Translations under genes and position numbers: made by a program
In this document: one piece after another, positions 1,643-31,104 of the stretch
Layout of the letters: each line of letters opens with the position of its first letter
Position numbering within the stretch: position 1 is the first letter of the stretch
Notes under the pieces: model-generated
Databases searched by the model: none
The model's input: only the letters and a program-made list of their open reading frames with translations
Told to the model about the DNA's origin: nothing
Assembly (NCBI GenBank): GCA_040222795.1
Contig: JAVKCJ010000037.1
Span: 18,798-50,797, forward strand
Reading direction: 5' to 3'
Length of the DNA: 32,000 bases
Source of the DNA: Salinisphaeraceae bacterium
GTDB taxonomy: Bacteria; Pseudomonadota; Gammaproteobacteria; Nevskiales; Salinisphaeraceae

Positions 1643-1644
1643 TC

Positions 1645-3060: not shown

Positions 3061-3795
3061 ATGAGCATCGTTCGATTCATCGTTACCGCTTTGACCGCGG
3101 GGTTGATTGCTGCCACCCCGGCACTATCGCAGCCCCCGGGCCAGATGGGGCCCACCCCGCTGTTCGAAGGCGACCCCCGTGAAATCACTTCACAGGTGGT
3201 TCCGCTGCCGGGTACCGACATCAGCGCGGTCGATCGTGACGGCAACTTGGTGCTGATCACCAGCAACAAGCGATACGCCGTGGTGGGCAAGGTCATCGAT
3301 CTTCTCGAGCGCAAGGAGCTGCGGACCATCGAGGATATCAAGCAGGCCCGCCGACTCGACTTCAAAGGCATTGGCATCGACTTCACCGAGATGGGTGCCG
3401 TCACCTTCGGCAATGGGCCCAAGGAGGTCATCTACTTTGTAGACCCCTACTGTCCGCACTGTAACGAGCTGCTCAAACAGTCCCGTGGTCTTTTCAACGA
3501 CTACACGTTCAGGGTCGTCCTGGTTCCCCTCTACAAAGGCCCAGTCGCCGCGGATACCTCCATCCGCCTGGTCTGCAATCCGGACCAGGACCAGAGCCGC
3601 CAGGCGTTGTTCTCCAAGCAATTCGACAAGCTGCCTGCCGCGTCCGATAGCTGTGATCGCGCCCAGTTCTACCGCAACGCCGCCGTGGCTCAGCTCCTGA
3701 ATGTGGAAGGCGTCCCGTTCGTCTATGCCCCGAATGGCGAACCCCATCTGGGCACCCCTCGTGATCTCGCTGCCTTCCTGGAGGACAACGCATGA
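3061..3795 (+). CDS. DsbC/DsbG-like thiol:disulfide interchange protein of the transfer region
   Basis: Signal peptide (IVTALTAGLIAATPALSQ) and a thioredoxin CxxC motif (DPYCPHCNEL). AGGA lies 8 nt upstream of ATG 3061; the ORF-track start 3037 is the alternative. SXT/IncA/C-type transfer regions encode a DsbC homologue. Confidence 0.8.
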   Translation: MSIVRFIVTALTAGLIAATPALSQPPGQMGPTPLFEGDPREITSQVVPLPGTDISAVDRDGNLVLITSNKRYAVVGKVIDLLERKELRTIEDIKQARRLDFKGIGIDFTEMGAVTFGNGPKEVIYFVDPYCPHCNELLKQSRGLFNDYTFRVVLVPLYKGPVAADTSIRLVCNPDQDQSRQALFSKQFDKLPAASDSCDRAQFYRNAAVAQLLNVEGVPFVYAPNGEPHLGTPRDLAAFLEDNA

Positions 3796-4370
3796 ACCGT
3801 CTGCTCGTTCTGTCCTTCATTCCCCTGTTTGGCGCGTGCGCCATCGGTAACTCCGATTTCGCTTGCAGCGGCGTTCCCGAGGGCAAGACTTGTATGTCAG
3901 CGCTCGAGGTCTATGACGCCACCAATGGCGTGCATCAGTCACCTCATGGTGCCGGCGGCCATGCCCACCACGATGGCCATGCCCCATCAGATCCGACTTC
4001 TACCGGGCGTTCTCTCACGCCCGCTCCACTGGTGTTGTCCCGTGGGGGAATCAGCCCATCGCCTGATCGTCCCGTTCCGATTCGGACCGAGCCCAAGACG
4101 CTTCGGATCCTCATCGGACCCTGGCAGGACCAGGATCGGGACCTGAATGCCGGCGGGTATGTTTTCACCGACCTTGCACCCCGCACCTGGAATATCGGTG
4201 CCGGCCCGGAAGCGGCCACCGCCCCCGTATATCCCGTATCGGTGGGTGACTCCTCGACATCGGGCGGCAGCTCGGCAGACACAGATCGGCCAGCATCCGC
4301 ACCCACGACGTCGTCAGGTGGAAGTTCACCGGATGTGGGGCGCGCATATTTCGATTCCGACCGCCAGTAA
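3792..4370 (+). CDS. traV: F-type T4SS outer-membrane lipoprotein TraV
   Basis: Lipobox PLFGAC followed by the conserved Cys pattern (FACSG..GKTCMSALEVYD) typical of TraV. P/S/G-rich C-terminus. ATGA overlap with the dsbC-like stop. Confidence 0.75.
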   Translation: MNRLLVLSFIPLFGACAIGNSDFACSGVPEGKTCMSALEVYDATNGVHQSPHGAGGHAHHDGHAPSDPTSTGRSLTPAPLVLSRGGISPSPDRPVPIRTEPKTLRILIGPWQDQDRDLNAGGYVFTDLAPRTWNIGAGPEAATAPVYPVSVGDSSTSGGSSADTDRPASAPTTSSGGSSPDVGRAYFDSDRQ

Positions 4371-4398
4371 GGCGGCACACAACGACAGGTAATCAATC

Positions 4399-4686
4399 AT
4401 GCAACGCATCTTCAAGTTCGCTTTGGTCTTCGTCGCCATGTTCGGTGCGGGCGCTGCCTATGCCGGCGCCGGTGGCACGGAGTTCGACACCATCTATCAG
4501 CAGCTCACCGACTGGACCGAAGGCACCCTCGGTCGAATCATCGCCCTGGGCATGATCATCACCGGCCTCGGCTGGGGTGTGGTCCGTCAGTCGATCATGG
4601 CTGTTGTTGTCGGCGTCGCCGGCGGCCTTGCTCTGGCCAACGCCCCGACTGTCATCGACAACATCCTCGGTGGCGTTCTGTTCTAA
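4399..4686 (+). CDS. Conjugative pilin precursor (TraA/VirB2-like)
   Basis: 95 aa. Signal peptide ends AYA, leaving about 73 aa of mature protein with two hydrophobic helices. The position after traV matches traA in SXT/R391-type gene order. Confidence 0.55.
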   Translation: MQRIFKFALVFVAMFGAGAAYAGAGGTEFDTIYQQLTDWTEGTLGRIIALGMIITGLGWGVVRQSIMAVVVGVAGGLALANAPTVIDNILGGVLF

Positions 4687-4695
4687 GTGGACCCG

Positions 4696-4722
4696 GCAGG
4701 GCGGGCCTGGCGCCCGCCCTGC
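4696..4722 (+). terminator. GC-rich hairpin after the pilin gene (attenuator or mRNA stabiliser; no U-tract)
   Basis: GCAGGGCGGGC (4696-4706), loop CTGGC, GCCCGCCCTGC (4712-4722): a perfect 11-bp stem. It is followed by ATTCCCACC rather than a T-run. Confidence 0.45.
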
Positions 4723-4754
4723 ATTCCCACCTCGTTCTCTCCCGGAGTTAGGCC

Positions 4755-7208: not shown

Positions 7209-7488
7209 TATCGTCTCGGCCATTCTCCCGATGATCGTGGCCGGCGCCGTCGGCGCGATATCCGCGCATGCCTACATGATGCGCAATTCACCGAGCATTG
7301 TTGTCCTCGATGTCGGGGCAATGACCGCTCGGATGGATCCTTCCGACCCGGCATTTCCAGAGGCCGTTAAGCGATCAGCGCAACGCGCTCGTGAAGTGGC
7401 TGATCGTTATGCCGATGCCGGCATGATTGTCCTGGATGGCCGCGGCGTCATGCGCGCGCCTTCGCGTCTGACGGTGACGCCAGAGTGA
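7195..7488 (+). CDS. Small single-TM protein, TrbI-like by architecture
   Basis: 98 aa from ATG 7195, overlapping the traC stop. N-terminal TM (ILPMIVAGAVGAISAHAY) and a soluble tail ending ..AGMIVLDGRGVMRAP, loosely like F TrbI (..HHAVILVSPAVVQGAP). Located between traC and trhF. Confidence 0.4.
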   Translation: MKLLDIVSAILPMIVAGAVGAISAHAYMMRNSPSIVVLDVGAMTARMDPSDPAFPEAVKRSAQRAREVADRYADAGMIVLDGRGVMRAPSRLTVTPE

Positions 7489-8027
7489 GCGCCACCGTCG
7501 ACCAGGCCCCACATCCATCGATGTGGAGAAACCTGTATATCGGGCTGGTGAAGACGCTGATCACCCTCGTCATTCTGTTGCCCGCGCTCTACTTCGCCCG
7601 CGAAAACTTCACCCTTGGCTTCGAGATGCAGAAGGGGGCACACAGCGTTCCCCACACCGTCTTTCTCATCCACAAGCAGTCCTACCCCTTTCGCGCGGAC
7701 CAATACATTGCTTTCGAAACGAAAGGCCTGGTTGATCCCTTCGTTGACGGGCTGACCATGATCAAGATCGTCGCCGGCGTGCCCGGGGACACTGTCCGCG
7801 TCACCCCCGAGGCGGTTTTCGTCAACCAGGCGAAGGTAGCCGACATCACCGTCGACACCATCGGGGAGAAAACCGGCAATCCGGTATCGGTAAAGACGAT
7901 CGACACACGCATCCCACCGGGCCACTACTTCGTGCTGGGGACACATCCGAAGTCCTATGACTCCCGGTTCTGGGGCCTGGTCAAGCCCGATCAGTTGATC
8001 GGCCGTGCTTACGGGCTATGGAAGTAG
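7485..8027 (+). CDS. trhF: S26 signal-peptidase-like transfer protein (TrhF/TraF type)
   Basis: GTGA overlap with the upstream stop. N-terminal TM. C-terminal PPGHYFVLGTHPKSYDSRFWGLV..IGRAYGLW matches the S26 peptidase box. traC-trhF-traW order as in R27/SXT. Confidence 0.75.
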   Translation: MSATVDQAPHPSMWRNLYIGLVKTLITLVILLPALYFARENFTLGFEMQKGAHSVPHTVFLIHKQSYPFRADQYIAFETKGLVDPFVDGLTMIKIVAGVPGDTVRVTPEAVFVNQAKVADITVDTIGEKTGNPVSVKTIDTRIPPGHYFVLGTHPKSYDSRFWGLVKPDQLIGRAYGLWK

Positions 8028-8036
8028 GTGCGTGCG

Positions 8037-9275
8037 ATGACTCGATTTGTCGTCTGCCTCCTCGCTGGCCTGTCTGCCGCCACCGCACTGCATGCCCAGC
8101 CATCTGGCAATACTGACGCTGACTTGAAGGAGATCCTCGAGCGTGCCGAGCAGGCGATTCGGCATGCCAAGGAGAATCCACCCGACTGGCTCGAAACCGA
8201 GCCACCGGAAGAGTACCGTGATATTGGCGCCGAGATCGCCGAAAAGGCACGCCAGGCGCAGCGTGAGGCGGTCGCGGCGGCCGGCGAAAAACAGGGCATG
8301 GACATGTCCGGTTTGGATCGCGATGCCAGCGGCAACGCCGGCGTTATTCTCGCGTTTGCTTCCACCGGCATGCCGGAGGCCGAGTTGCGCGGTCTTCTGG
8401 AAGTGGCAGCCGTCAACCCCAGGGTGGTGGTGCTTTTCCGCGGCCTGCTGCCAGGCGATGCGAATCTGCGCGAGAGCCTGCTGCGCTTCAATGCCATGAC
8501 CGATGGCCTCGACCCGAAGCCTTCTGTCCAGATTCACCCGAAGCCGTTTCAGCGCTATCGCGTGACCGCGGTGCCGACACTGGTCATGCTCTCCGACAAG
8601 CCCGGGGATCCCACGGTGCGTGTCGAAGGCAGCATCAATCTGGACTGGCTGAAAGAGCAGGGTGAGAAACGCCTATCGGAGGATGCTGACCCTGATCTCT
8701 CTGCCGATCTCGGGCGCGTTGGACAGGTCTATGACATCGCGGAGCAGGACCTTCTGGAGCTGATGAAATCCAGGGTGGCCAGCATCGACTGGGAGCAGAA
8801 GAAACGCCAGGCCCGCGAACGCTTCTGGACCAATCATCCGCCTTTCATCGAGCTTCCACTGGCCAAAGCCGACGACGTCCGCCTGGTCGATCCCACCGTC
8901 ATCGTCAAGAAGGATGTGCCGAAACCAGACGGCAGCGGCTTGCTGGCCAGGGCAGGGGAGTCCTACAACCCCCTCGACAAGATCAGCTTCACGCGGCGCG
9001 TATTCATCTTCGATGCCACCGATCCACGCCAGATCGAGTATGTCATTGAGCAGTCCGAAACCCCGGTGCCCGGCAAGCTCGATGTCTTCATCACCACGGC
9101 GATCGACCGCGAAAAGGGTTTCGACTTCATCACCGAGGTGGAAGACAAGCTGGGCATGCCGATATTCCTGCTCAAGCGGGACCTCGCCATCATGCTTCGC
9201 ATCCGCGCCATCCCCTCGGTGGTCACCGGCGAGGGCAAGCGGCTTCGCATTCAGGAAGTGGGGTTGGCGCTATGA
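8037..9275 (+). CDS. traW: TrbC-TraW fusion protein (TrhW-like)
   Basis: Signal peptide MTRFVVCLLAGLSAATALHA; GTG 8028 is the alternative start. The N-terminal half has the TrbC pattern (ILAFASTGMP..VVVLFRGLL..VQIHPKPFQRYRVTAVPTLV). The C-terminal half has the TraW pattern (VYDIAEQDLLELMKSRV..). R27 TrhW is a known TrbC/TraW fusion. Confidence 0.75.
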   Translation: MTRFVVCLLAGLSAATALHAQPSGNTDADLKEILERAEQAIRHAKENPPDWLETEPPEEYRDIGAEIAEKARQAQREAVAAAGEKQGMDMSGLDRDASGNAGVILAFASTGMPEAELRGLLEVAAVNPRVVVLFRGLLPGDANLRESLLRFNAMTDGLDPKPSVQIHPKPFQRYRVTAVPTLVMLSDKPGDPTVRVEGSINLDWLKEQGEKRLSEDADPDLSADLGRVGQVYDIAEQDLLELMKSRVASIDWEQKKRQARERFWTNHPPFIELPLAKADDVRLVDPTVIVKKDVPKPDGSGLLARAGESYNPLDKISFTRRVFIFDATDPRQIEYVIEQSETPVPGKLDVFITTAIDREKGFDFITEVEDKLGMPIFLLKRDLAIMLRIRAIPSVVTGEGKRLRIQEVGLAL

Positions 9276-10453
9276 GTCATCAACGTAACTGGCGCCGGAC
9301 AATCGCCTTGCTGGGTTTGAGTCTGGCCGCCATCTGGCCAGCGACCTCGTCGGCCGACGATGATCTGATTTGCCCGAGCGCGGAAATCTGGGGCTCTTTC
9401 CTGTTTACCGGCATCTGCTGGGACTGCGTTCTTCCCATCCGCGTCTTCGCGGGGCAGATCGGCGATAGTGCCGGCGCGCCGGCAGGCGCGGCTGACAGCA
9501 CGGTTTGCCTCTGCGAGGACGAGCTCGGCGTCCCCGAGGTGGGTTTGACCACCGGCATGTGGCACCCAACCAAGATTCTCGAGATCACCCATACCCCGTA
9601 TTGCAGCCCCACGCTCGGCGGGGTTCGCTTGTCGGATTCGTTCAAGCTCCTAGGCGGCCGTTCTACCCAGGCCGGCGCCGGCGGTGGCGGCAAGGCCTTC
9701 TACAACTACCACATGTATGCCTTCCCGCTATTCGAGATCCTCGAGATCCTGATTGCGCCGATCTGTACGCCGGCCTCCTACACGGACTTCGATCTACTGT
9801 TCATCAGCGAGCTCGATCCCACCTGGAGCGACCCCGAGCTGACGCTCTTCGCGATCCCGGAGGCACTGTTGTTTACCGGCCCATCTGCAGCCCTGGCGTC
9901 GTTGGTCGACTGCCCAGCCGCGAGCGTTGGCAAGCCTATCGATGACATCTACTGGTTCGCCGGCTGCTGGGGCAACTTGTATCCCTTCTCCGGGCATATC
10001 AGCGGGGGCTCCAACCCCGTGCGTGACACCAGTCTTGCCGCCTCCCGTGCGATGGCCCAGCTGCACCGCCGCGGTCTTGCCAAGCGAACCGTCGGTGAGG
10101 ACACGATGTGCGAAAGCCAGTATTTCCCGCACATCAAGAAGAGCCAGTACAAGATGCAGATGATGTACCCGCGCACCGAGGCCGCGGGCTCACCCTTCAA
10201 CCCGACCGACTTCGAGAACACGAATACCGAAACCGGTGACGAAGCCTCCACGGATGATCGTGGTACCGAGTACACCGAGCTCACGCCGGGCCAGCGAAAC
10301 ACACTGGAGAATCCCGGGTCGTGGGGCGAAACAGACACCTGTTGCCATCGCATTGGCGAATCCACTTTCCGGTGGGGCGAATGGCGAAACAGGCCTGCCA
10401 AGGAGAATCACCTCTACCTGCTCTGGCAATGGGTGGATTGTTGCTTGAGGTGA
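9272..10453 (+). CDS. traU: F-type T4SS protein TraU
   Basis: ATGA overlap with traW. Signal peptide. Cys-rich N-terminus (LFTGICWDCVLPIRV) characteristic of TraU. Position is between traW and traN. Confidence 0.85.
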   Translation: MSHQRNWRRTIALLGLSLAAIWPATSSADDDLICPSAEIWGSFLFTGICWDCVLPIRVFAGQIGDSAGAPAGAADSTVCLCEDELGVPEVGLTTGMWHPTKILEITHTPYCSPTLGGVRLSDSFKLLGGRSTQAGAGGGGKAFYNYHMYAFPLFEILEILIAPICTPASYTDFDLLFISELDPTWSDPELTLFAIPEALLFTGPSAALASLVDCPAASVGKPIDDIYWFAGCWGNLYPFSGHISGGSNPVRDTSLAASRAMAQLHRRGLAKRTVGEDTMCESQYFPHIKKSQYKMQMMYPRTEAAGSPFNPTDFENTNTETGDEASTDDRGTEYTELTPGQRNTLENPGSWGETDTCCHRIGESTFRWGEWRNRPAKENHLYLLWQWVDCCLR

Positions 10454-10457
10454 GCCG

Positions 10458-13400
10458 ATGGCTTTCCCGACATTGAATCCTCTTCGAGTTCTGCCACTGC
10501 TTGGGGCTGTGGCGACGGCGTGTCAGCCCTGGATCCCAGCAATGGTGGTCCTGATGTCCGCGACACCGACTATCGCCCAGGCCCCTGCCGGCGACCCGGA
10601 GGAGTATCTGCGCCAGGGTGAGTCGTTCGGCGAAAGTCAGCGCTTGAATGCGCCCCGTCCGGGATTCTCTCCCGACAGCTATCAGATCACGGTGCCCAAT
10701 CGCGACGGCACCTCCACCCAGATGGACTTCGGGACCCGTCCCGATGGGACGACTTACTCGCCGTCGGATATCGACGGGTTGCGAAACTCCTACGGTGATA
10801 ATGCCGAGACCCGTCAGCAGGTTGATAACCGGCCACCTGATCCCGCCGCCGATACCGTTGATCCGGTGAAATCGGACCGCTCCCGCACCTCGATGGAGAA
10901 TGACCCGACGATCGCCCGGTCCGATCAATACCTGCAGGGTATGGAACGTGACGGTGGCTTTACCGCCCAAACCCAGCAGTGCCAGGTGGTTGAACCCCAG
11001 GACGATGGCAGCCCTCATGTCGAAGACCCCCGCGATTGCGTGAGTGTCGATGCCCCGGCCATCGCCGAGTGCACGATCGACAACGAGCTGCAGCTCTCGA
11101 CCACGGACAACCAGGCGGTGGCCCTGACGATCCTGATCGAGAAATCCGATTCCATGCGTGGCGGCAACCGGATGGAGGATGCTGCCAGCGCCACGGTTTC
11201 CGTAGCCCGGGCATTGGAATCCGCAGTGTTCACCGAATACTCGGTCCATGCCTATGCCCGCGGTGGCGACGACCCTGCTTCGGCTGATGGTATGGCCTCG
11301 AGCTACTCCTTGACCGCATTTCCCGAGAACATCAACGACCCTGGCGTCATTACTCGATATGCCGAGATAGAAGCGGACGCGAACTCGACGCCGACAGCCA
11401 GCGTCATGGATGCGGCGGCCAATGTCCTGGTCAGCAGCCGGCGGGAACCGCGCAAGCTCGTGCTTGTGCTCACCGATGGCCGGCCGAGCTTTGAACAGAC
11501 CTGTCCCAATGCCGCGGACTGCAATCCCCGAGGTGTTGCCGAGCACTACGCGGGCGAGGTCCAGGTGGCTGCGGTGGGCATTCAAAGCGATGCCGTTCAG
11601 GACGACTTCGATCTCTACCGTGTCGCCAACTCCAGTGGCCAGATAGCAGAAGCCGTTTTCGAGATCCTGTCAGAGGACCTTGGCTGGTTCCAGGTCTCCA
11701 ACGTCTGGAAGCCCGACACCTGCATCGAGACCGCCCAGGAGGTACAGAACGAGACCTTCGCCGGCGAGATTTCCTGCAGTGCGCCACCGGATAGCAGCGG
11801 CTGTGTGGAGATCGACGGCGTTCGCGTGTGTGAAGGTTCGACCTTCGCCGAGCAGATGTCCGAACCGCCGGTCGACAACGTACCGAAGGTTTGCGGTGCC
11901 ATCGAAGTCACCGATGTTGAGTATTGCTGGCGTGACTCCGATGGGTCTCAACAGTGCACCAACGACACCGACGAAGAGGCCCCGGGCCCGACACGCTGCG
12001 AGATATACCGGTCTGATCCCCAGTGCGGTATCAAGACCTCGCAGTGTGTCGAATCCACCCGCAATGAAGACGGTCAGTGCTACGTCTTCGAGGAGGTCTG
12101 GGATTGCGGCTTCCGTGAAGCCGGCCCGAACGTGACTCGTGACACCGAGGGCAATATCTATGAATGCGACGGTCAGTCGATGGGCTGCATTGACGGCAGC
12201 TGCATGGATGACCCCCAGGAGGAAAACCCGAATTTCGAGTCCATGGCCACGACCCTGCAGATGGTGGAATTCACCGCCCAGGACGAAGGCACCTGCGACA
12301 TCAACAACGGTTGTGAGCTCTTCCCTGGCGAAGCCTACTACTGTAAATCGGAGGTCTTCTACGGCGCCGAGAACTGTTGCGACGACACCCCTGAAGTCAA
12401 TTTCGTTGCCTACATCACCGCAGCAAAGCTCGCCTGGAAGGGGCTGAAGTCCGAGCAGATGGCCAACTGGATGGCCTCCTATGGCGTGGACTACATGGGC
12501 TATTGGCAGTCATTCCAGTCAGGGGCCTATGACGTCTACGGCTCCATTTCGAGCCACTTCACCAGCGCCTTCGGCTCCATGAGCGAAAGCTACGCCGGCC
12601 AGGCCGCGGTCAACCAGGGCGCTGCCAGTACCGCCGAGGCTGGATCTCAACTGGGCATTGATAGCATCAAGCAGGAAATCCTCAACCAGGTGCAACGGTG
12701 GATGGAGCGGTTCGCCCCGGCCATGCACGATGCCCTGTTTGCCGAAGGTGCACAGCAGGGTGGCCAGGCGGTGTTGTCTGATCAGGCCCAGCAGTACATT
12801 GGCTACGCCAGCTGGATCATGACAGCCTATTCCTATTACCAACTGGCCAAGTTCGCGATCACCATCATCGCCGACTGTCAGGATGATGAGCAGCCGTTGT
12901 TCAACATCAAGCGAGACAACCTACGCAGCTGCCATGTCCTTGGCGAGTATTGCCACCGTGATGATTTCTTCGGCAATTGCATCGAGCGTCGGTTGACGGG
13001 CTGCTGTTTCAACTCGCCCTTGTCGCGCATTCTTCAGCAGCAACTACACCAACAGCCGCATCTCGGGCTTTCCTGGGGAGATGTCCGTAACCCGAGCTGT
13101 GCTGCCATCCCGCTTGAAACGATGGCCCAGGTTCGCTGGGAGGATGTCGATCTCTCCGAATGGACCGACATTCTTTACGAAACCGGCATCGCGCCGAGGG
13201 CTGCCGATATGCAAGCCGCCGGCGCCCGCGACCAGAAGACCGCGAATGTCGATGACCCCAACTACTATCAGCCGCCCGATTCGGACGAACGCTACGATCG
13301 ACGCTCGACCGACCCTGAAAGTGGTGACCAGAGCTTCGATTTCTCTGAGATTCGCGACAAGAACGTGGAAGAGATGCGACGCCGCACCGATTCAGCTGAC

Positions 13401-13598
13401 GAAGCCAACAACGGCGAGAACAATCAGCCCAACGGTGGTGCTGCACAGAACCCCGACGCGGGAGCCGCCTCTCGTGCGTATGCGGTGCCGCCTTCCGGCC
13501 GCGCCGCGCTCCAGATTGAACAGGACGCCAACGGGGATGGCCGAATCGATATTCGCGACGGCGTCTGCAGCCTGTTCAACAACTGTCAGACTCAATGA
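10458..13598 (+). CDS. traN: Mating-pair stabilisation protein TraN (giant, 1046 aa)
   Basis: Long signal sequence and many Cys residues. Conserved C-terminal GCCFNSPLSRILQQQ box as in TraN. Size is comparable to R27 TrhN. Carries an internal vWA-like segment (see findings). Confidence 0.8.
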   Translation: MAFPTLNPLRVLPLLGAVATACQPWIPAMVVLMSATPTIAQAPAGDPEEYLRQGESFGESQRLNAPRPGFSPDSYQITVPNRDGTSTQMDFGTRPDGTTYSPSDIDGLRNSYGDNAETRQQVDNRPPDPAADTVDPVKSDRSRTSMENDPTIARSDQYLQGMERDGGFTAQTQQCQVVEPQDDGSPHVEDPRDCVSVDAPAIAECTIDNELQLSTTDNQAVALTILIEKSDSMRGGNRMEDAASATVSVARALESAVFTEYSVHAYARGGDDPASADGMASSYSLTAFPENINDPGVITRYAEIEADANSTPTASVMDAAANVLVSSRREPRKLVLVLTDGRPSFEQTCPNAADCNPRGVAEHYAGEVQVAAVGIQSDAVQDDFDLYRVANSSGQIAEAVFEILSEDLGWFQVSNVWKPDTCIETAQEVQNETFAGEISCSAPPDSSGCVEIDGVRVCEGSTFAEQMSEPPVDNVPKVCGAIEVTDVEYCWRDSDGSQQCTNDTDEEAPGPTRCEIYRSDPQCGIKTSQCVESTRNEDGQCYVFEEVWDCGFREAGPNVTRDTEGNIYECDGQSMGCIDGSCMDDPQEENPNFESMATTLQMVEFTAQDEGTCDINNGCELFPGEAYYCKSEVFYGAENCCDDTPEVNFVAYITAAKLAWKGLKSEQMANWMASYGVDYMGYWQSFQSGAYDVYGSISSHFTSAFGSMSESYAGQAAVNQGAASTAEAGSQLGIDSIKQEILNQVQRWMERFAPAMHDALFAEGAQQGGQAVLSDQAQQYIGYASWIMTAYSYYQLAKFAITIIADCQDDEQPLFNIKRDNLRSCHVLGEYCHRDDFFGNCIERRLTGCCFNSPLSRILQQQLHQQPHLGLSWGDVRNPSCAAIPLETMAQVRWEDVDLSEWTDILYETGIAPRAADMQAAGARDQKTANVDDPNYYQPPDSDERYDRRSTDPESGDQSFDFSEIRDKNVEEMRRRTDSADEANNGENNQPNGGAAQNPDAGAASRAYAVPPSGRAALQIEQDANGDGRIDIRDGVCSLFNNCQTQ

Positions 13599-14488
13599 CC
13601 AGCGTAGGCATATAGGCGAAGAGCCGGCACGATCGGCTCCTTCGCCAGTCGACGGCCGCCGCTTCGGGGTAGCCGCTTCTTTCGCTCGCGTTCATCCGGC
13701 GGGTAGGCGTCCAGCTCGTTATGCCGCACACCCGCGGCGCCAGGCCGCGCCGGATAGAGCAGGGGCAGGGCGGCATCGAACATCTGTCGCGTGGTCTCGT
13801 CATCAATCTTCCAGACCACGTTGGCCCGCACGGATGGCGCCACCGGCTTGACCACCGCCAATTCCTGATTCTCCGGCATCGCACTAAGGCGTGCCTGAGC
13901 CTGTTCCCGAACCCGATCCGAGAGGTGTTTCGCCCTCCGCACCATCGCCCGGCCTTGCGCCACATCCACCTTGCGGATCGAGCGATTACCACATGACCAG
14001 GTCAGGCTGATGGAGGCGGGCATCGGCTCCAGTACCCGAATCTGGCGATAGGTTTGTACAAGATGCACCCGCGCATTCCCCACCTGGGATAGTGCCTCAA
14101 CGACGGCAGGCGCTCGTCCTCTGTCCTCATTGATCAGTCGGTTGACGGCATCTTCTTTCCCCAATCCCTCGGGATGCCGGATCTCCAGCACGCGTTTTTT
14201 CACCCTGGATTTCCATTCGTTGACCCGGCGGGCACAGGCCAGGGTTTTCTCAGACACGCCCAGCGCGCCAGGGCAGCGATCGCTCCGGCTTTCCTCCTGA
14301 GACTCACGATATTCCAGTCGTCGGATCGCCGCGGCCGCGGCGGCATGCCTGGCGTTTTCCCGCCATGCCAACCAACCGGGATAGCCGGCTTGTTCGTCCT
14401 GGATCAATCGGCCTTCAAGCTCCGAGAGTGCCTCGGCAAGCCCATTGAAGGCTTCCAGAAGGGCGATGCGCATGTCATTTTTCATCAC
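13592..14488 (-). CDS. Tus-family (DNA replication terminus site-binding) protein homologue
   Basis: 298 aa against 309 aa for E. coli Tus, with collinear matches from memory. CPGALGV matches LPGVLCY. TYRQIRVLEPMPASISLTW matches AYRTLTVLHDPATLRFGW. MPENQELAVVKPVAPSVRANVVW matches [23 protein letters not shown]. The C-terminal IVPALRLYAYAGH matches IIPRLHLYVAD. The start is GTG 14488 or ATG 14485. Confidence 0.55.
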   Translation of the reverse strand: MMKNDMRIALLEAFNGLAEALSELEGRLIQDEQAGYPGWLAWRENARHAAAAAAIRRLEYRESQEESRSDRCPGALGVSEKTLACARRVNEWKSRVKKRVLEIRHPEGLGKEDAVNRLINEDRGRAPAVVEALSQVGNARVHLVQTYRQIRVLEPMPASISLTWSCGNRSIRKVDVAQGRAMVRRAKHLSDRVREQAQARLSAMPENQELAVVKPVAPSVRANVVWKIDDETTRQMFDAALPLLYPARPGAAGVRHNELDAYPPDERERKKRLPRSGGRRLAKEPIVPALRLYAYAGH

Positions 14489-20123: not shown

Positions 20124-20987
20124 TCACACGGACGGTTTGGAAAGGGCTTCAAACTGCTGATCGAGTTTATCGAGTCTACGTTGCATCCTCGGGTTATGAA
20201 ATCGCTCGATGTAGTCGAAAACGTCTGAGCGAGCCTGGGCTCGGGTCAGGTATTTCCGTCGGCGGACCCGCTCGCGCTTGAGCACGCCGAAAAAGCCCTC
20301 GCAGGCGGCGTTATCACCGCAGTGGCCGACCGCACTCATGCTGCTGACGAGATTCTGGTCTTTGAGAAAGCCCTGCACCTCATGACTGGTGAATTGCGTG
20401 CCGCGATCCGAATGCAGGATCACCGGCTGGCCGGGGTCCTCACGACGTCCCAGCGCGGCGGTCACCGCATCCAGCACCAGCTGACGCTGCTGCGTCGCGC
20501 CCATCGACCAGCCGATCACGAGCTTGCTGTAAAGGTCGATCACCACGCACAGAAATAGCCAGCCTTCGGCGGTGCGGATCTGGGTGATATCGGTCACCCA
20601 TTTGGTGTTGGGCTCAAGCGCGGCGAAGTCGCGCTCGAGATGATTGGCGATGCCGATGGGTCGCAGCCCCGATGGCTTGTAACGCCAGGACCGGGCCACT
20701 GGGATCCCGTGGATGCCGTGTCGGCGCATCAGGCGTGCGACCCGATTGAGACTGGCCCGCTCGCCTTCAAAGCCGAGTTCTTCGTGCATGCGCCGGCGTC
20801 CCATCACGCCGAGATGATCGGCATGGATCGCCCGAATGCGGCTCAGTAGCCTGCGATTGTCACGTACCCGAGCACTGGGCCGGCGTTTCTGCCAGTCGTA
20901 GAAACCGCTGTGCGAGACCCGCAAACAGCGGCACATCAGCCGCACCGGATAGTCGCCGCGGCCAGCATCGATCGCCTGGTACTTCAA
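20124..20987 (-). CDS. IS3-family transposase OrfB (DDE), probably made as an OrfAB fusion by -1 frameshift
   Basis: DDE triad contexts [15 protein letters not shown] and [11 protein letters not shown]. The orfB frame stays open upstream to the T TTT TTG heptamer at 21029-21023. Confidence 0.9.
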
Positions 20988-25600: not shown

Positions 25601-25720
25601 GTTCAAATCGACGGACGAGAGCACCTGGCGGTCATTTCGGGCACAAATGTTCTCACCCCGCCCACGGTCAACCTAAACGTCCGGCAACGCGTCTACTACT
25701 ACGAGTCTGGCATTCGCTGA
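22655..25720 (+). CDS. pilY1: PilY1-like pilus tip adhesin with N-terminal vWA domain
   Basis: ATGA overlap with pilX. Signal peptide MKHLLASALLGLGVLAWLPVKA. vWA-like N-terminal region (VLFFIDNSANW .. ALVSIADEI). C-terminal beta-propeller-like region with EF-hand-like loops DSNQDGDLA (24509-24535) and DRDQNGFLD (24938-24964). Confidence 0.85.
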   Translation: MKHLLASALLGLGVLAWLPVKAEDIDLYRQDTGSISAPDVLFFIDNSANWNASIGTTSKRELEHQALTTFFSNPDIVGTMNVGIMLFSKGNSPKGGKIIESVKPLTESYRQHLLSRIEEGLPKTNNAPLALSLEEARRYYGGIAPRSGTQDGSTGEDRYDTDAIEGDGSYDSPGNNTGGCGRHYIVFISNGEPDSGENRDAENQLQAIDGILDSDPINLDPSQFESSWADEYSRWLANNQVMHEGIRTAYPSVYTYVIDVFADSETTDDNQQSNGNKKKGQGGGGQNGNRKFESARALNRSIADQGKGRYFTAASAADVNDALVSIADEIQSVNSVFASTALPVSVNVRGTNLNQVYLGVFRPDGDDTTRWQGNLKLFELALDDATDELFLADRHGNRAQSAVTGFIAPGSESHWSHSSSFWAFSPSGTPPSESDLPDAEVVEKGGVHQRLRDAESNGTIVGQRSVYTCAGGCTQGGLLSDNLFAPSNAAITQADLGAADVEDRADIINWVLGLDNHEDEDGDGQRTDARSSIHGDVLHSRPALINYNRDGTDNDIVAIYGANDGQIRAVQGGFGDQRGSELWSFIPPEFFPRLKALRDNDVRGKSYFADGNVVPYIVDSNQDGDLADAGDKAFVYVVMRRGGNFIYALDISNPDAPRFLWSISDQTAGFAELGETWGAPVVGRIEAHDSPVAVIPGGYDPGADDPESNDSRSMGRSIYVVDAVTGALIWQASGNLDPSGPGASLLVPGMTHSMPADATAIDRDQNGFLDRIYQPDTGGQLWRFDIANPDPSQWEASRLASVGDDQEFLYAPDVVAGGDSAGAFDAILIGAGDREDPFDTSVTNRYYMIKDRAVTESRTGYATVTLADLHDATPADLQNGVASAQTALDASSGWYLTLSNPGEKVVSTATTINGVVFFNTTQPPPADALTCSVSLGIARLYSVSYKDATAVADQRAPAGLDVQDRHVEAPGGGFPPSPVPVVVQIDGREHLAVISGTNVLTPPTVNLNVRQRVYYYESGIR

Positions 25721-25740
25721 TGGTCCCCTGCGGGTGAAAT

Positions 25741-25762
25741 GCCTGGTCATATATGACCAGGC
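25741..25762. repeat. Perfect 22-bp palindrome GCCTGGTCATATATGACCAGGC
   Basis: Read directly, 21 nt after the pilY1 stop. A third ATGACCA half-site lies at 25775-25781, and TCTAGC occurs twice (25765-70, 25792-97). Confidence 0.85.
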
Positions 25763-25817
25763 GATCTAGCCCCAAATGACCATCTTTTTGGTCTAGCGTC
25801 GGAGCTTCATTCAACGG

Positions 25818-26222
25818 ATGGAGTTTGCTATGAGCAAGAATTCTGACGCGTATCTGGATGACGACCAACCGCAGAAGGCTGCGGATCTCATGGGGGTCGA
25901 TCTCGATCCCAACTGCCATGACCGCGATCTGAATGAGACGATGACTCGTGGGGAATTTCTTCAGGAGTTCCTCCAGGACCAGTCGAAACAGCGGCTGCTG
26001 GCAATGCTTTACGGCGGAATTCATAACGCGGTAAATCCCAATTTTTCAAGAGCCAGACGCCGTCGCGGCCTGCTCGCCAAGGACCCCCATGCCGTCCTTG
26101 AAGTGATCGCCGATGGCGCCGCCACGCCTGAAAGAAAGCAGGAATTTGCCGTACTGGTCGAGTCGCTACGGGATTTCCTCCTCCGCGTTTATGACGAAAC
26201 CGCTCCCGACAATCCCGGCTAG
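25818..26222 (+). CDS. Hypothetical protein (acidic N-terminus)
   Basis: 134 aa, or 130 aa from ATG 25830, which has GGAG 6 nt upstream. No family recognised. Its stop overlaps the RES gene stop. Confidence 0.5.
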   Translation: MEFAMSKNSDAYLDDDQPQKAADLMGVDLDPNCHDRDLNETMTRGEFLQEFLQDQSKQRLLAMLYGGIHNAVNPNFSRARRRRGLLAKDPHAVLEVIADGAATPERKQEFAVLVESLRDFLLRVYDETAPDNPG

Positions 26223-26704
26223 CGGTTGAACAGCCGCCTGTCCCACCAAACGGGCATCGGCAGGCCCACCTCGATATCCGAGAATTCAGGGTGGTGCGGG
26301 TTGATGATCACGTTCTGCTCGAGCCGGGCGACGAAACACGGAACAAGCAAGATCGCGGATCGTGCCTCGGTTGCCCAGGAAACCGCGAATGCCCGGCTGG
26401 TTGCCTGTCGTCGCGCATCCCAGCCCGGCAACAAGTCTGGGGTGACGCATTCGTAACTCAGGCCGCGGGGCAGGGTGATCTCCACGTAGTGCTGGTTGGG
26501 CGGCATCAGGCCTGACGATGCCGCCAGCTTCTCCAGCATGGCGGCGCTGTACTGTCTGGACGCATAGATCACCGGCGTGTGCTCGTCGTTCCAACGCCCC
26601 GGGAATCGTGTCGATCCGGTGGCATCGAAAATCGGGAACACCCCGCCTGGGTCCCCGATTCGATAGGCCGTGAGTGTTCGGTCCAGCTTCTGGGCTGTGC
26701 TCAC
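26219..26704 (-). CDS. RES-domain toxin (RES/Xre type II TA system)
   Basis: 161 aa. R..E..S signature contexts (TAYRIGD, GRWN, VIYAS..AAMLE, SAILLVP). GTGA overlap with the upstream antitoxin gene. Confidence 0.8.
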   Translation of the reverse strand: MSTAQKLDRTLTAYRIGDPGGVFPIFDATGSTRFPGRWNDEHTPVIYASRQYSAAMLEKLAASSGLMPPNQHYVEITLPRGLSYECVTPDLLPGWDARRQATSRAFAVSWATEARSAILLVPCFVARLEQNVIINPHHPEFSDIEVGLPMPVWWDRRLFNR

Positions 26705-27135
26705 GCAGCCGAGCCGTACTTCAGTCTACCGAGGATATCTTCCACCATGCTTGCGCCGATATCCGTCCCCACGGCCACATCCAACGGGGTTTGGCCGTCA
26801 AGGAACATGTGGGGTCGCTTGAGGAACTCGCGAGCGGTGTGCTGATCCCGGAAAACGTCCTCTGCGGCGGCCAACACTCTCGCCGCTCTCTCGAATTTCT
26901 GGCTTTCAACGCTGTTAAGCCGCCCAGATTTACGACGTCGATCGAGCGTTGTTCCTTTCACGAAGAGCTCGTTGACTTGCCGATCAGCCAGCATCATAGC
27001 GGACTTGACTCGATCCACCACAGAGGTTGGGAACCCCTCCTCAATCCGTTTGATCAGCGCTAGGGGATTATCGAAGTCTCCTTCGTGCATTCCCAGAATG
27101 CTGGCCACGTTATGCGTCTCGGTTTGGATTTCCAT
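26701..27135 (-). CDS. Xre/MbcA/ParS-family antitoxin (DUF2384-type)
   Basis: 144 aa. C-terminal ..AREFLKRPHMFLDGQTPLDVA..G...V.DILGRL pattern typical of RES-partner antitoxins. GGAGG RBS. Confidence 0.75.
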   Translation of the reverse strand: MEIQTETHNVASILGMHEGDFDNPLALIKRIEEGFPTSVVDRVKSAMMLADRQVNELFVKGTTLDRRRKSGRLNSVESQKFERAARVLAAAEDVFRDQHTAREFLKRPHMFLDGQTPLDVAVGTDIGASMVEDILGRLKYGSAA

Positions 27136-27189: not shown

Positions 27190-27513
27190 TGGGCCTGGTC
27201 GTGAATCCGCTCCTTTCTATGGGCACCGAGGCGTTTCCCCGGAGATCCCACAAGGGGTCGAGCACAAGGCGAGGCGTACCGCCGCTTAGTTTAAGCGCGT
27301 ATTCCGACGCTGGTGCATTTCCCCGCCTCGGTCACATCTCAGAATCACTCACGACAAGTGATCGTTATCATTAGTGTAATACCAGCGTTACACGCCTTTT
27401 TTCGGGCTTGCTTCCCGCATAAGAAGCCGTATATTGTGCATACGAAGGGAGTTTACGGGCTATATAAGATAACGCATATAACATCGCTCAGCCCGCAATC
27501 GAGGATGAATCAC

Positions 27514-27819
27514 ATGAAAGGCTGCCGAGATAACAGCTGTGTCATCGAAAAGCCCACCGGGATGGCCACCAATGGTGGCTGTCGATGCCGCCCTTGGCAG
27601 CTGCGAGCCGAGATCGTTCGGCTCCAGTCCGAGAACTCGAAACTCAAGAGCCTCGGGATCGAGCTCGCCCACGACGCGATCGCGGTCGCCGAAGCCACCT
27701 ACGCTGGCCGACAGACCTATCCTTCCTATCAGCGTCGCTATGACCGTGACACCGCCGCAGCCTCCGAGATGCTTGCGATCGCCAGGCCCGCCAGCGACAG
27801 TGACGATGACCCGGCCTAG
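27514..27819 (+). CDS. Hypothetical small protein with N-terminal Cys motif and a coiled-coil segment
   Basis: GAGG lies 9 nt upstream of ATG 27514. MKGCRDNSCVIEKPTGMATNGGCRCRPWQLRAEIVRLQSENSKLK. First gene of a translationally coupled operon. Confidence 0.55.
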   Translation: MKGCRDNSCVIEKPTGMATNGGCRCRPWQLRAEIVRLQSENSKLKSLGIELAHDAIAVAEATYAGRQTYPSYQRRYDRDTAAASEMLAIARPASDSDDDPA

Positions 27820-28519
27820 CCCTCGACCAACGATCAGCCACGCCGATCTGGTCGCCATCGGCGCCGGCTGGGCCAAGCGTGCACGCTCTCGCGGTGGGCC
27901 TGGCTCCGACATCGTCCTGACCGAACCCGGCGCAGGTTTCGGTCAGGAGTCTCCGGACGTGATCGGTTGGAAGTTGACCGGCCCGGATGGCGGCAGCGTC
28001 CTCATCGAAGCCAAGGCCAGTCGTTCCGATTTCCTGGCGGATATCAAGAAAGCCCACCGCGAAGGTGACGGACTGGGGAACTGGCGCTATTACCTCTGCC
28101 CCGATGATCTGATTCAACCGGAGGAATGCCCGGCCGGCTGGGGGCTGCTCTATGCCGGCCCTCGCCGGCGGGTGAGGGTGGTCGCCGGCGCTCATCTCGA
28201 CTCCCATTACAGCCGCCGCATCGAGGCACTTCGCCAATGGCGGTTCAACGCCGATCTCGAGGCAGAGCGCTATCTGCTGGTCGCCTGGCTTCGTCGCGTC
28301 GAGTCGCCAGAGGCCACCAACCGGTTAATCCGACTCGCCCGACAAGATGCCGCCGTCTATGGACGGGCGTACGAAAAAGAACGCAAGACCTGCCAACGTG
28401 TGTCCGATCGATTTCTCCGCCTGCAGCTGGCGATCGAACAGGCTGAGGCCGCCACCCCGGGCATCCGTGATTGCATCAATGACATCCTAGACCGCTATGA
28501 GCGTGGAGACCAACCATGA
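27806..28519 (+). CDS. PD-(D/E)XK nuclease-fold protein, MmcB-like
   Basis: Start ATG 27806 overlaps the upstream gene. The core ESPDVIGWKL..SVLIEAKASRSDFLADIKK..NWRYYLCPDDLI..CPAGWGLLYA fits the D..E.K motif and MmcB/DUF1052 layout. The ORF-track start 27539 is rejected. Confidence 0.55.
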   Translation: MTRPSPRPTISHADLVAIGAGWAKRARSRGGPGSDIVLTEPGAGFGQESPDVIGWKLTGPDGGSVLIEAKASRSDFLADIKKAHREGDGLGNWRYYLCPDDLIQPEECPAGWGLLYAGPRRRVRVVAGAHLDSHYSRRIEALRQWRFNADLEAERYLLVAWLRRVESPEATNRLIRLARQDAAVYGRAYEKERKTCQRVSDRFLRLQLAIEQAEAATPGIRDCINDILDRYERGDQP

Positions 28520-29415
28520 GTGATTCGCCCTCCCAGGATCGAACGGTCCAGCTCAACATTCCCGTCCCTGAGCGTCTCAAAGATCGGTTTGGTGAGATTG
28601 CCGAAAGCCTGGCTGCAGAATCCGGCGAGGACATTTCCCGCGCCGAGGTCTTCACCCGCCTTCTCGATGGCTTTACCGATCGCGCGTCATTCGGGGAGTC
28701 CGTCTCAGCCGAATGGCAAAGCGTATCGGCCCGGGTCGGGTTTCACGTCGCCGGGCTGGAGCGTCTGCTTCGCGAGGCGTATCTCTCGGCCGGTGAGGGC
28801 CGCCTCGAGGCGCAGCAGGAAACCGAACAGGCACGGGCCGCGGCCGATCAAGCCCAGCATCGCGCCGACGAACTCGATGCCGAGCTCAAACAGGCACAGG
28901 CGGATCTCAAGAATGCTGACAAGCAAATGCAGCGCGCCCTCGAGCAGCAGCAGCTTGAACACCAACAGGCTCTCGACAGCCTTGAACGGCAGATGGCCAC
29001 CGCCACGGCCAAGAATGAGCTGGTCGAAGAGCTGCGTGCCCAGCGTGACAATCACCAGAAGGCCCATGACGCCGTCCTGCAGCAGCTCACCGACATGGAA
29101 GAGCGTGTGGAGCAGCTCAAGGCCGAACTCGATGAGCGCGGCTTCAAGCTGGAGCAGGAGCGAGACCGTTATCACCAGGCATCCGCCAGTCTGGCCGAGG
29201 CCCAGGCTCGCGCGGCTTCTGCCACGGACCGTGCCCAGGACGCCCGCCAGGAACTCAGAACGCTGACTGACAAGAACAGTGAGCTGCGTGAACAGCTTGG
29301 CAGCCTCAAGTCGGACATCCGCGCCCGAGACGAGTTGATCAAGGAGCTGCGCAAGCCCAGCGGCCGCGCCGGCTCGAAGTCGGCCAAGTCGAAGCAGGGC
29401 GGTGCCACATCGTGA
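28516..29415 (+). CDS. Ribbon-helix-helix-like N-terminus plus long coiled coil (KfrA-like architecture)
   Basis: ATGA overlap with the upstream gene. N-terminus VQLNIPVPERLKDRFGEIAESL resembles a CopG/Arc beta-strand and helix. About 200 aa of Q/E/A/L/R heptad-like sequence follow, then a basic tail. Confidence 0.5.
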   Translation: MSDSPSQDRTVQLNIPVPERLKDRFGEIAESLAAESGEDISRAEVFTRLLDGFTDRASFGESVSAEWQSVSARVGFHVAGLERLLREAYLSAGEGRLEAQQETEQARAAADQAQHRADELDAELKQAQADLKNADKQMQRALEQQQLEHQQALDSLERQMATATAKNELVEELRAQRDNHQKAHDAVLQQLTDMEERVEQLKAELDERGFKLEQERDRYHQASASLAEAQARAASATDRAQDARQELRTLTDKNSELREQLGSLKSDIRARDELIKELRKPSGRAGSKSAKSKQGGATS

Positions 29416-30566
29416 GTGCCCTGGTGCCGGTTGAAGTCCCGGAAGCGCGGGTGGATTACCTCGTCAAGGAGGTAGGGGGCTTCGACCCGCAGGTCAGGGC
29501 ACGCATCCGCCATACCCTTCGCACTGCCATGTCCGAGAGCCTGACCCGCGGCATGGCCCGGGCCGCTCGCTATCACAAGACCTGGCTGCAGTTGCGGTTC
29601 GGGACTGACGCGGCCGACCGTTTCCCGGCCTGGGAACGAGACCATCTCATCACCTTCATCACCGACCACGCGTATGCGCCGCCGGCAAACATCGACGAGC
29701 TGCTCTGCCAACCTTCGTCGACGAATCAACGCAGCCTGAAGAAGCGCCCGGGCGGCTGGAAATTCGCGACCATCGAGCACCATCTTTCGATGCTCACAAC
29801 CGTGTGCCGTCTACGCGGCATGCCGGCGCCCAATGACGACGCCACGATTCGATACTTCCTCCAGTCCACCCGCAAGGCCATGGCCAAGGATCCCGGCCGG
29901 CGAGAGCGCCTTAGCCAGTCCACGCCGGCGATTACCCGTGACACCCTGTTCGAGCTGGTAACGCTGCTCGAGGCTGAAAGCCATGCGTCTCACCTGACGC
30001 TTTCCCTGCCGGCCAAACGTGATCTGGCCCTGCTGCTCCTCGGCTTTGGGGCAGGGGGGCGCCGTCGATCGGAGATCTCGGCCATACGCTGCGTCGACCT
30101 TGAGGCCGCGGACTATGACGATGAATCAACGCTTGCCCTGACTATCCCCCTGTCCAAAACGGACCAGAAGGGCGAGGGCAAACGCTACCTGCTTCCCCCG
30201 GTTGCCGCCTCGGCGGTCCGCGACTGGCTGTCCACGGCGGATGTCGATGCAGGTCCCGTCTTTCGTCGTATCAGCAAATCCGGTCGCGTGCTTCCCTACG
30301 GACTGACCCCCGATGGCGTCTACTACGTGCTCAAGGCCCGTTTTAAGTCCGTGGGCAAGGATCTGAGCCCCCATTCCTTGCGGGCTGGCTACGTCACTGA
30401 AGCCGGCCGTCAGGGCAGGGACCAGGGGCAAACCATGCGCATGACCGGGCATCGTTCGGTCAGCGCATTCATGGGCTATTTCGACGCCGGCGCGCTGCAG
30501 AAGAACGCATCTGTCGAAGTCCTGGGTGAAGCCCTATCGTCCGCGAAGAAAAAATCCGGCCAGTGA
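29412..30566 (+). CDS. Tyrosine-type site-specific recombinase/integrase
   Basis: GTGA overlap with the upstream gene. Catalytic contexts GGRRRSEISAIRCVDL (R), HSLRAGYVT (HxxR) and GHRSVSAFMGYF (H..Y). Confidence 0.85.
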   Translation: MSALVPVEVPEARVDYLVKEVGGFDPQVRARIRHTLRTAMSESLTRGMARAARYHKTWLQLRFGTDAADRFPAWERDHLITFITDHAYAPPANIDELLCQPSSTNQRSLKKRPGGWKFATIEHHLSMLTTVCRLRGMPAPNDDATIRYFLQSTRKAMAKDPGRRERLSQSTPAITRDTLFELVTLLEAESHASHLTLSLPAKRDLALLLLGFGAGGRRRSEISAIRCVDLEAADYDDESTLALTIPLSKTDQKGEGKRYLLPPVAASAVRDWLSTADVDAGPVFRRISKSGRVLPYGLTPDGVYYVLKARFKSVGKDLSPHSLRAGYVTEAGRQGRDQGQTMRMTGHRSVSAFMGYFDAGALQKNASVEVLGEALSSAKKKSGQ

Positions 30567-30582
30567 AATTGAGGTACCCACC

Positions 30583-31104
30583 ATGAACACGCCCCATCCC
30601 CTCCAGCAGGCCTTCCCCAGTCTTATGCGCGTGCTGGTCGAAAAGTATCAGGCGCTACCTCAGTGGGCCGCCATTGAAACTGGTTACGGCGAACAGGCCG
30701 ACCTTCCCATACTGCTCGACATCCTCAGCAAGCTGCACCACCTCGACGAGGTCAAGGAATTCCAGAACACTTTCGCCGATCGCATCAGCAGCGCCTGGCT
30801 CCAGGTCGAGCAGCAGAAGATTCAGGATGTGGTCGAAGAGGCAGATCACCCAGATCCCATTGAGGCAATTTCGGCAGCCGTGATGGAGCACCTGGCAATG
30901 TGCCCCAAGCCGTGGGCCGCTGTGAAAGACCAGCCCATCTCCTTCCTTGAAAACGAGATCACCACCGTCGTCAACGACCTCTATGGCGATGAATTCCAGG
31001 CCAGCGTGCTCAGCGTATCGCCTCTCGACGAGCACAACCTATCCCCAGTCGACATTACCTTCCGCATCCTTCCGTCCCTGGGCGACCTCCCAGACATTGA
31101 ATAG
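30583..31104 (+). CDS. Hypothetical acidic protein
   Basis: GAGG lies 8 nt upstream of ATG 30583. 173 aa, D/E-rich. No family recognised. Confidence 0.5.
   Translation: MNTPHPLQQAFPSLMRVLVEKYQALPQWAAIETGYGEQADLPILLDILSKLHHLDEVKEFQNTFADRISSAWLQVEQQKIQDVVEEADHPDPIEAISAAVMEHLAMCPKPWAAVKDQPISFLENEITTVVNDLYGDEFQASVLSVSPLDEHNLSPVDITFRILPSLGDLPDIE

Follow-up and report, generated by a model that had tools for sequence, protein, structure and literature searches.

We analysed a block of five genes, g1 to g5, and the palindromic site at its head in a 32,000-nucleotide stretch of DNA from a Salinisphaeraceae bacterium (assembly GCA_040222795.1, contig JAVKCJ010000037.1, positions 18,798 to 50,797), which we refer to as the window. 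The genes encode, in order, a small protein with a cysteine motif, an MmcB-like nuclease-fold protein, a coiled-coil protein, a tyrosine recombinase and an acidic protein. Their positions, and those of the other features discussed, are collected in Table 1. An initial annotation of this DNA had described the genes as a translationally coupled operon, and reading the junctions from the sequence confirmed its coordinates, overlaps and gap: g1 and g2 overlap by 14 nt, g2 and g3 by 4 nt (ATGA) and g3 and g4 by 4 nt (GTGA), and g5 begins after a 16-nt gap downstream of g4. No start codon other than the ATG at 27806 would retain the conserved N terminus of the g2 family (H12 and W22), and a terminator scan found no plus-strand terminator-like sites within the block. 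The nearest genome, that of Salinisphaera sp. P385, contains the same block; its DNA is 92.4% identical to that of the window and its five proteins are 89–100% identical, and the 14-nt and 4-nt overlaps are also present in a relative (loci L006–L009) in which the proteins are just 68–72% identical. We take g1 to g5 to be real genes, evidently under selection. The DNA of the block had no nucleotide match in plasmid and phage collections.

Table 1 Positions of features in the window
Feature	Positions	Strand	Description
Candidate recombination core, like rst IR1–IR2	27345-27377	+	TCACTCACGACAA-GTGATCG-TTATCATTAGTGT, 13-7-13
Overlapping palindrome	27344-27363		ATCACT-N7-AGTGAT
Second short palindrome	27374-27394		GTGTAA-N8-TTACAC, perfect 6-bp arms, abuts core
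g1	27514-27819	+	101 aa
g2	27806-28519	+	237 aa
g3	28516-29415	+	299 aa
g4	29412-30566	+	384 aa, GTG start
g5	30583-31104	+	173 aa
Lox-like palindrome within g2 (rejected)	27915-27948		13-8-13, 12/13 arm positions
Toxin–antitoxin pair	26219-27135	-	RES/Xre
MmeI-type IIG enzyme	from 31199		complete form 1150 aa
Conjugation genes	659-13598		TraK, TraB/TrbI, TraV, TraC, peptidase S26, TrbC, TraU, TraN
Ter/Tus-like protein gene	13592-14488	-	PF05472, E 2e-7
Segment absent from P385	18383-25741		7.4 kb; type IV pilus minor-pilin/PilY1-like operon
IS3-family rve open reading frame	20124-20987	-	interrupts the pilus operon
Imperfect palindrome	25719-25784		33+33 nt, perfect core CCTGGTCATATATGACCAGG

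The recombinase and its candidate core site

The residues R218, K249, H321, R324, H347 and Y356 of g4 are invariant across its 27 homologues. A profile of the g4 family matched Cre over Cre residues 82–341 with an E value of 4e-21, an XerC-like protein with 9e-13 and XerD with 6e-5; there was an additional weak match to Cre residues 16–64 and no arm-binding domain. The invariant catalytic residues and the Cre match thus bear out the earlier assignment of g4 as a tyrosine recombinase. Over 166 aa, the protein is also 32% identical to the TnpS that the Tn3-family transposon TnXca1 encodes (E 1e-18), and we predict that it is a catalytically complete, Cre-like and TnpS-like recombinase. In TnXca1, a Cre-related TnpS is accompanied by a divergent helper, TnpT, and the site, rst, is found in the interval that separates tnpS from tnpT (PMC4337579, PMC7157771). 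This site has a core, IR1–IR2, at which recombination has been reported and which has been assigned to TnpS, and a second pair of repeats, IRa–IRb (PMC4337579, PMC7157771).

Relatives of g4 (about 30–37% identity) were found in 1058 plasmid records, 538 of which are typed as conjugative. In the Pseudomonas loci, and likewise on plasmid pXCV183 and a Variovorax plasmid, the gene for the homologous recombinase diverges from a gene for a KfrA_N-headed protein, and a divergent KfrA_N gene lies within 1.5 kb of the recombinase gene in 48 of the 59 metagenome loci with sufficient upstream DNA. Literature searches on KfrA with a recombinase or integrase returned no description of this pairing; the link came through pXCV183, on which the second of two such modules, beside a Tn3-family transposase, is the TnXca1 of the literature. 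TnpT of TnXca1 matches the Pfam family KfrA_N with an E value of 2.4e-28, and this head contradicts the published claim that TnpT has no homology to other proteins (PMC7157771). We also observed that at Pseudomonas-type loci (L097, L100, L002 and others) a palindrome, TACGT-TGA-ACGTA, ends exactly at the ATG of the recombinase gene and that no Shine–Dalgarno sequence is visible at these starts, an arrangement that points to a leaderless mRNA or to tight control by an operator.

Because a Tn3-family transposase lies within 10 kb of the g4 relative in none of 80 metagenome loci, most relatives are stand-alone modules. Stand-alone KfrA_N/TnpS-like pairs accompanied by an rst-like palindrome (L096–L175; pXCV183 76556–78688) are common, and the literature searched contains no description of them outside transposons. 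The same survey bears on the proposal that the block is a remnant of a Tn4651-type resolution module that no longer serves its host element. The relationship of g4 to TnpS would fit such an origin, as would the genuine Tn4651-type transposon of the sister strain P385, which has TnpA and a TnpS that is 63% identical to that of TnXca1. Set against these points, the genes are intact and conserved in three lineages at 31–47% identity with their catalytic residues kept, and there is no Tn3-family transposase in the window, in the related locus L182 or in the 6.6 kb beyond the window. We regard a remnant as very unlikely.

A palindrome with 13-bp arms, symmetric at 9 of 13 positions, and a 7-bp spacer lies 137 bp upstream of g1. 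We derived a weight matrix from 52 palindromes located between KfrA_N-type genes and g4 homologues and scanned the window with it. There was one match, at 27341–27381 (+), with 25.6 bits, and the next real position scored −4.8. In 200 Markov shuffles the maximum averaged −3.4 (s.d. 4.0) and the highest value was 9.7, placing the real site at a z of about 7. Its orientation relative to the recombinase gene is as in the training set, and it is also single-copy in P385 (L005), L182 and L183. When 1.47 Mb of unrelated loci were scanned as a control, three matches reached at least 15 bits, all of them in AT-rich DNA. A lox-like palindrome within g2 was rejected; its arms are not conserved in P385 or L006.

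A palindrome of this type recurs in the family. Among 55 relatives with a KfrA_N neighbour, GATAA-N7-TTATC lies between the two genes in 54, in 52 of them without a mismatch. The family palindrome extends to 13-bp arms that differ by subfamily yet remain symmetric: 54 cells were changed on both sides, compared with 27 in shuffles, and 78.7% pair, compared with 25–53% in slid registers. Because the arms co-vary symmetrically, the family site is predicted to be a dimer-binding palindrome. At three loci (L115, L150 and L175) no KfrA_N gene was found upstream and the site still stands directly upstream of the recombinase gene; by its placement, it appears to track this gene. On the complete plasmid pXCV183 (182.6 kb), each of the two KfrA_N/recombinase modules is accompanied by a single site, and the rest of the plasmid has none. 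The strong one (36.4 bits) lies between the KfrA_N gene and the recombinase gene of its module, and the module beside the Tn3-family transposase has a perfect palindrome, GCGGGATAAT-CTAGA-ATTATCCCGC, in the same position.

Of the two short palindromes that accompany the core in the window, the one that abuts it shares TGTAATAC with a second, AT-rich element found in related intergenic regions. Its TGTAA/TTACA half-sites are also found in IRa/IRb of TnXca1, ATTACAT-ACC-ATGTAAT, but in the opposite arrangement. It is possibly an accessory site, a helper-binding site or an operator. The core itself might be a transcriptional operator only, for the recombinase or for g3, in which case g4 would act elsewhere, for example on an inversion switch or another replicon. 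The site is promoter-proximal and the second palindrome adjoins it; moreover, a resolution site often doubles as an operator, and KfrA-type proteins regulate their own expression (PMC7783346). An exclusively regulatory role sits poorly with an architecture as in rst, for which recombination at IR1–IR2 is reported (PMC7157771), and with the 13-7-13 geometry, which is that of tyrosine-recombinase core sites. In neither the 32-kb window nor the 182.6-kb pXCV183 was another candidate site found, and we consider this role rather unlikely.

Genes that accompany the recombinase

We found the site and the recombinase gene in three lineages. The first comprises the window, P385, L182 and L183, in which the order is site, g1, g2, g3, g4 and g5. 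In the second (L006–L009 and L001), the site, g1, g2 and g3 are followed by six genes, g4, six further genes and g5; in L006 and L001, g4 follows g3 at a distance of 7 kb and g5 follows g4 at 3.5 kb. The third, L184, has the site, g3 and g4 without g1 and g2. The six genes between g3 and g4 of L006 (11660–17915) encode, among others, a RAMP-like protein, a Cas6e-like protein (PF08798, E 2e-7) and a DinG-like helicase, and look like a type IV-like (IV-A) CRISPR–Cas module. Homologues of g3 precede those of g4 in all three lineages. Because only the site, g3 and g4 recur in all of them, we define these three as the conserved core, and in both lineages that have g1–g2 the site is upstream of g1 and not of g3. 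The initial annotation had proposed a single uncharacterised module of five genes, and the survey of co-occurrence that it called for does not support this unit: L184 is without g1 and g2, g4 and g5 stand apart in L006 and L001, and none of 80 loci with g2 relatives keeps the set together. As for the module being uncharacterised, that description now holds in part, given that the core resembles a system of known function, TnpS/TnpT/rst of Tn4651-type transposons.

The protein g3 is the candidate helper. An AlphaFold2 model from the single sequence has an unstructured segment (residues 1–18), two helices (19–36 and 42–51) with a predicted local distance difference test score (pLDDT) of 50–70, and one long helix (78–279) with a pLDDT above 90. 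The small head on a coiled coil that had been described is thus reproduced, as a small head on a helix of about 200 residues. The description of g3 as KfrA-like with a ribbon–helix–helix-like head fared less well. We rejected g3 as a KfrA homologue: its N-terminal 95 residues gave no KfrA_N match at E values of up to 10, profile–profile comparison detected no similarity between the heads, and hhalign of g3 against TnpT/KfrA_N-type proteins aligned 38 columns of coiled coil only. The TnpT/KfrA architecture is therefore kept and their head is not. A comparison of the g3 head with Arc was in register over 42 columns and weak (hhalign E 4e-4, probability 34%), and searches of Pfam and PDB sequences returned nothing credible, only spurious matches to aldehyde dehydrogenase. 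The head is possibly a ribbon–helix–helix of the Arc/MetJ superfamily, whose strand–helix–helix unit spans about 45 residues, and g3 may be viewed as an analogue, not a homologue, of the TnpT/KfrA_N-type helpers.

In the g1 protein, an invariant four-cysteine motif, GC(G)DNSCV-x5-GMATNGGCRC, precedes a helical tail. The motif (residues 3–25, window 27514–27600; 22 residues) has 16 invariant columns in 31 small proteins and is probably a zinc knuckle that would represent a new zinc-binding module; g1 had no match in Pfam, NCBIfam, PHROG or PADLOC. Its relatives are located in phage-like early regions, without g2, and no recurrent partner was seen in their neighbourhoods. The L006 homologue is 72% identical and has an identical 14-nt overlap.

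For g2, sequence and model agree with the earlier assignment as an MmcB-like protein with the PD-(D/E)XK nuclease fold. The residues D51, E68 and K70 are invariant (D51...E68-x-K70), and the MmcB-family structure 3dnx (SPO1766) was matched both by profile (E 1.2e-5) and by Foldseek (E 2.6e-5). There were further matches to phrog_631 (E 4e-47) and to phage or viral 'MmcB-like' models. The protein has the PD...ExK motif and the fold in common with the MmcB family and differs from it by a C-terminal helical tail of about 65 residues (AlphaFold2 model, pLDDT 91) and by a score against PF06319 that is below Pfam's own threshold. Relatives are mostly found on prophages, in the nin region with an IstB-like loader on one side and NinG on the other, and on plasmids, where their neighbours in arrays that resemble leading regions are rdgC, ssb, a zincin-like metallopeptidase and an orphan cytosine methyltransferase. 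Across 80 genome loci with a g2 relative, no g1, g3 or g5 was seen within 10 kb of it, and one locus has a weak g4 relative. Public records call many members of the family (P0127–P0164 and H31–H55) 'adenylosuccinate synthase', which conflicts with the nuclease-type motif and fold.

Tightly coupled to each other, g1 and g2 form a lineage-specific addition between the site and g3 and do not count among the required parts of the recombination core. A reading in which g1 to g4 form one four-protein, nuclease-assisted site-specific recombination machine, with g1 and g2 as obligate partners, is kept alive by the g1/g2 and g2/g3 overlaps that are conserved at 68–72% identity and by the position of the site upstream of g1. 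In such a machine, g1 and g2 might act at the site on DNA that is unresolved or foreign, by processing or destroying it, or they might determine the reaction's direction. It would have no described precedent, and we think it quite unlikely.

The last gene, g5, encodes a protein with an isoelectric point of 4.33, in agreement with its earlier description as acidic. An exhaustive HMMER search of 1.84 billion representatives found no relatives beyond its own cluster, and matches in Pfam were far below threshold. L001 has a homologue that is 65% identical, 3.5 kb downstream of its g4 homologue, with a sigma-70 family gene on one side and an AcrVA2-like gene on the other (4136–7438), a neighbourhood that hints at anti-defence. 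We conclude that g5 is an ORFan and a syntenic backbone gene outside the conserved core that is probably co-transcribed with it here.

These results also address the suggestion that g1 to g5 act together as a single DNA-sensing system for defence or anti-defence. The setting resembles a defence island, with a toxin–antitoxin pair upstream and an MmeI-type enzyme downstream, and the block combines a nuclease fold, a coiled coil and an acidic ORFan; the AcrVA2-like neighbour of g5 in L001 and the ssb, rdgC, orphan methyltransferase and ArdC-like neighbours of plasmid g2 relatives point the same way. A search of PADLOC-DB gave no match for g1, g2 or g5, one for g4 with an E value of 0.035 and, for g3, matches to the tails of LmuB, JetC and ZorA that reflect coiled-coil composition only. 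With no defence-system match beyond these and no co-conservation of the five genes, a defence role has little to recommend it and is highly improbable.

The conjugative element around the block

The genes that flank the block were identified as proposed: a RES/Xre toxin–antitoxin pair adjoins the module on one side and an MmeI-type IIG restriction–modification enzyme follows on the other. The conjugation genes belong to an F-type system, and by gene content the window is part of a conjugative element. Its TraC is 45–51% identical to TraC of SXT/R391-type integrative and conjugative elements (ICEs) and of Methylomonas, Azospirillum and Pseudomonas plasmids. A gene for a Ter/Tus-like replication-terminus-binding protein lies directly after traN and is kept in P385.

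An alternative is that the block is an integration module, with g4 as the integrase of the element and the palindrome as an attP-like site. The ICEs among the nearest TraC relatives are compatible with this, as are the long, apparently chromosomal Pseudomonas contigs that carry g4 relatives and the 232-kb P385 contig, which has ordinary-looking genes a few kb downstream of the block. Several observations speak against an integrase of the ICE or prophage type: g4 is without an arm-binding domain, and the window has no excisionase-like gene, no att repeats and no tRNA gene. The initial annotation had suggested a search for att-like repeats around the block, and this search, which extended 6.6 kb past the window, returned only short imperfect repeats and no flanking direct repeats. 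Furthermore, the site is intact beside its gene at every locus seen, whether plasmid or chromosomal-looking. Integration is therefore unlikely as the role of this module.

Several differences between the window and P385 lie outside the block. The 7.4-kb segment that is absent from P385 contains a type IV pilus operon (a ComP_DUS pilin, a GspH-like protein, PilW and a 1075-aa PilY1-like protein) that is interrupted by an IS3-family element, and a similar pilin/PilY1-like operon precedes the module in L006. We rejected this difference as a product of the recombinase, the left breakpoint having no site-like repeat. At the right breakpoint, just past the stop codon of the PilY1-like gene, there is an imperfect palindrome that is unlike the rst-like site and has no matching repeat at the left breakpoint. 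In P385 (L005 11788–18569), the MmeI-type gene encodes 790 aa, compared with 1150 aa, and is followed by the Tn3-family transposase and TnpS-like recombinase of the Tn4651-type transposon; it looks as if insertion of this transposon truncated the restriction gene.

Proposed multimer resolution and comparison with known systems

We propose, with a probability of roughly 55%, that the module is a stand-alone variant of the TnpS/TnpT/rst Cre-like resolution system and that it resolves multimers of the conjugative element. Homology, catalytic residues, conservation and symmetry of the site and synteny are established, and from these we infer which protein binds which element, resolution as the role and g3 as the helper. 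The initial annotation had offered multimer resolution or stability as one of three possible roles, and it is the one that the evidence favours; integration, a regulatory-only palindrome, a transposon remnant and defence are each less likely. In the proposed mechanism, g4 would bind as dimers to both 13-bp arms, strand exchange by g4 would take place across the 7-bp spacer, and recombination between direct copies of the site in dimers of the element would yield monomers. The part that TnpT has for TnpS would be taken by g3, which may bind beside the core and stimulate or direct the reaction through its long helix. With the site placed at the operon's head, transcription is probably autoregulated by these binding events as well.

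Several observations weigh against this proposal. The window site departs from perfect symmetry, which holds at 9 of its 13 arm positions, and reads GACAA where relatives have GATAA, and its counterparts in L006 and L184, which are found in the same place, are weaker (14.5 and 13.7 bits). The weight matrix was trained on stand-alone relatives that are about 33% identical to g4 and not on an experimentally mapped site. The recombination activity of the module and DNA binding by g3 are predictions, and TnpT heads and g3 have no detectable homology. The translational coupling of g1, g2 and g3 is conserved, which may be a sign that g1 and g2 participate in the reaction. Finally, some relatives of g4 are on chromosomal-looking contigs, those of Pseudomonas among them, and the window element, whose closest TraC relatives include those of SXT/R391-type ICEs, may be either a plasmid or an integrated ICE.

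If correct, the proposal explains most of the operon, other than g1, g2 and g5, as maintenance machinery. The TnpS/TnpT/rst type has been described for Tn4651-type transposons, and the relatives reported here are stand-alone modules on many large plasmids, with the KfrA_N head of TnpT providing a connection to the KfrA plasmid-maintenance proteins. The palindrome consensus can be used to annotate resolution sites and could supply orthogonal pairs of Cre-like recombinases and sites.

Cre/loxP of the phage-plasmid P1 resolves dimers of a low-copy replicon, and Cre is the closest solved structure to g4 by sequence profile. The two systems are alike in having no arm-binding domain, in 13-bp arms close to the gene and in a presumed role in dimer resolution. 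They differ in that Cre acts without a helper and the loxP spacer is 8 bp and of unrelated sequence, and the similarity is distant only. The stand-alone KfrA_N/TnpS-like pairs (pXCV183 76556–78688 and Pseudomonas L002–L004) have the same recombinase family (32–37% identity), core consensus and orientation, and likewise no transposase nearby. Their helper is KfrA_N-headed, divergent and 65–480 bp from the recombinase gene, whereas the order in the window is site, g1, g2, g3 and g4.

The resemblance to TnpS/TnpT/rst, which resolves cointegrates in the Tn4651 subgroup of Tn3-family transposons (Tn4651, TnXax1 and TnXca1), has three parts: a Cre-like tyrosine recombinase (g4 and TnXca1 TnpS being 32% identical); a helper of about 300–350 aa with a small head, DNA-binding by prediction in the case of g3, and a long coiled coil; and a GATAA(T)...(A)TTATC core beside the genes with an adjacent short palindrome, which is a resemblance of sequence. 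The window system differs in that the g3 head is not KfrA_N, g3 is co-directional with and translationally coupled to g4 whereas TnpT is divergent, the site is upstream of the whole operon and not between the helper and recombinase genes, g1 and g2 lie between the site and the helper, and neither a Tn3-family transposase nor terminal repeats were found. With a different head, and with the long coiled coil and the core site kept, the window variant offers a natural experiment on what the helper contributes.

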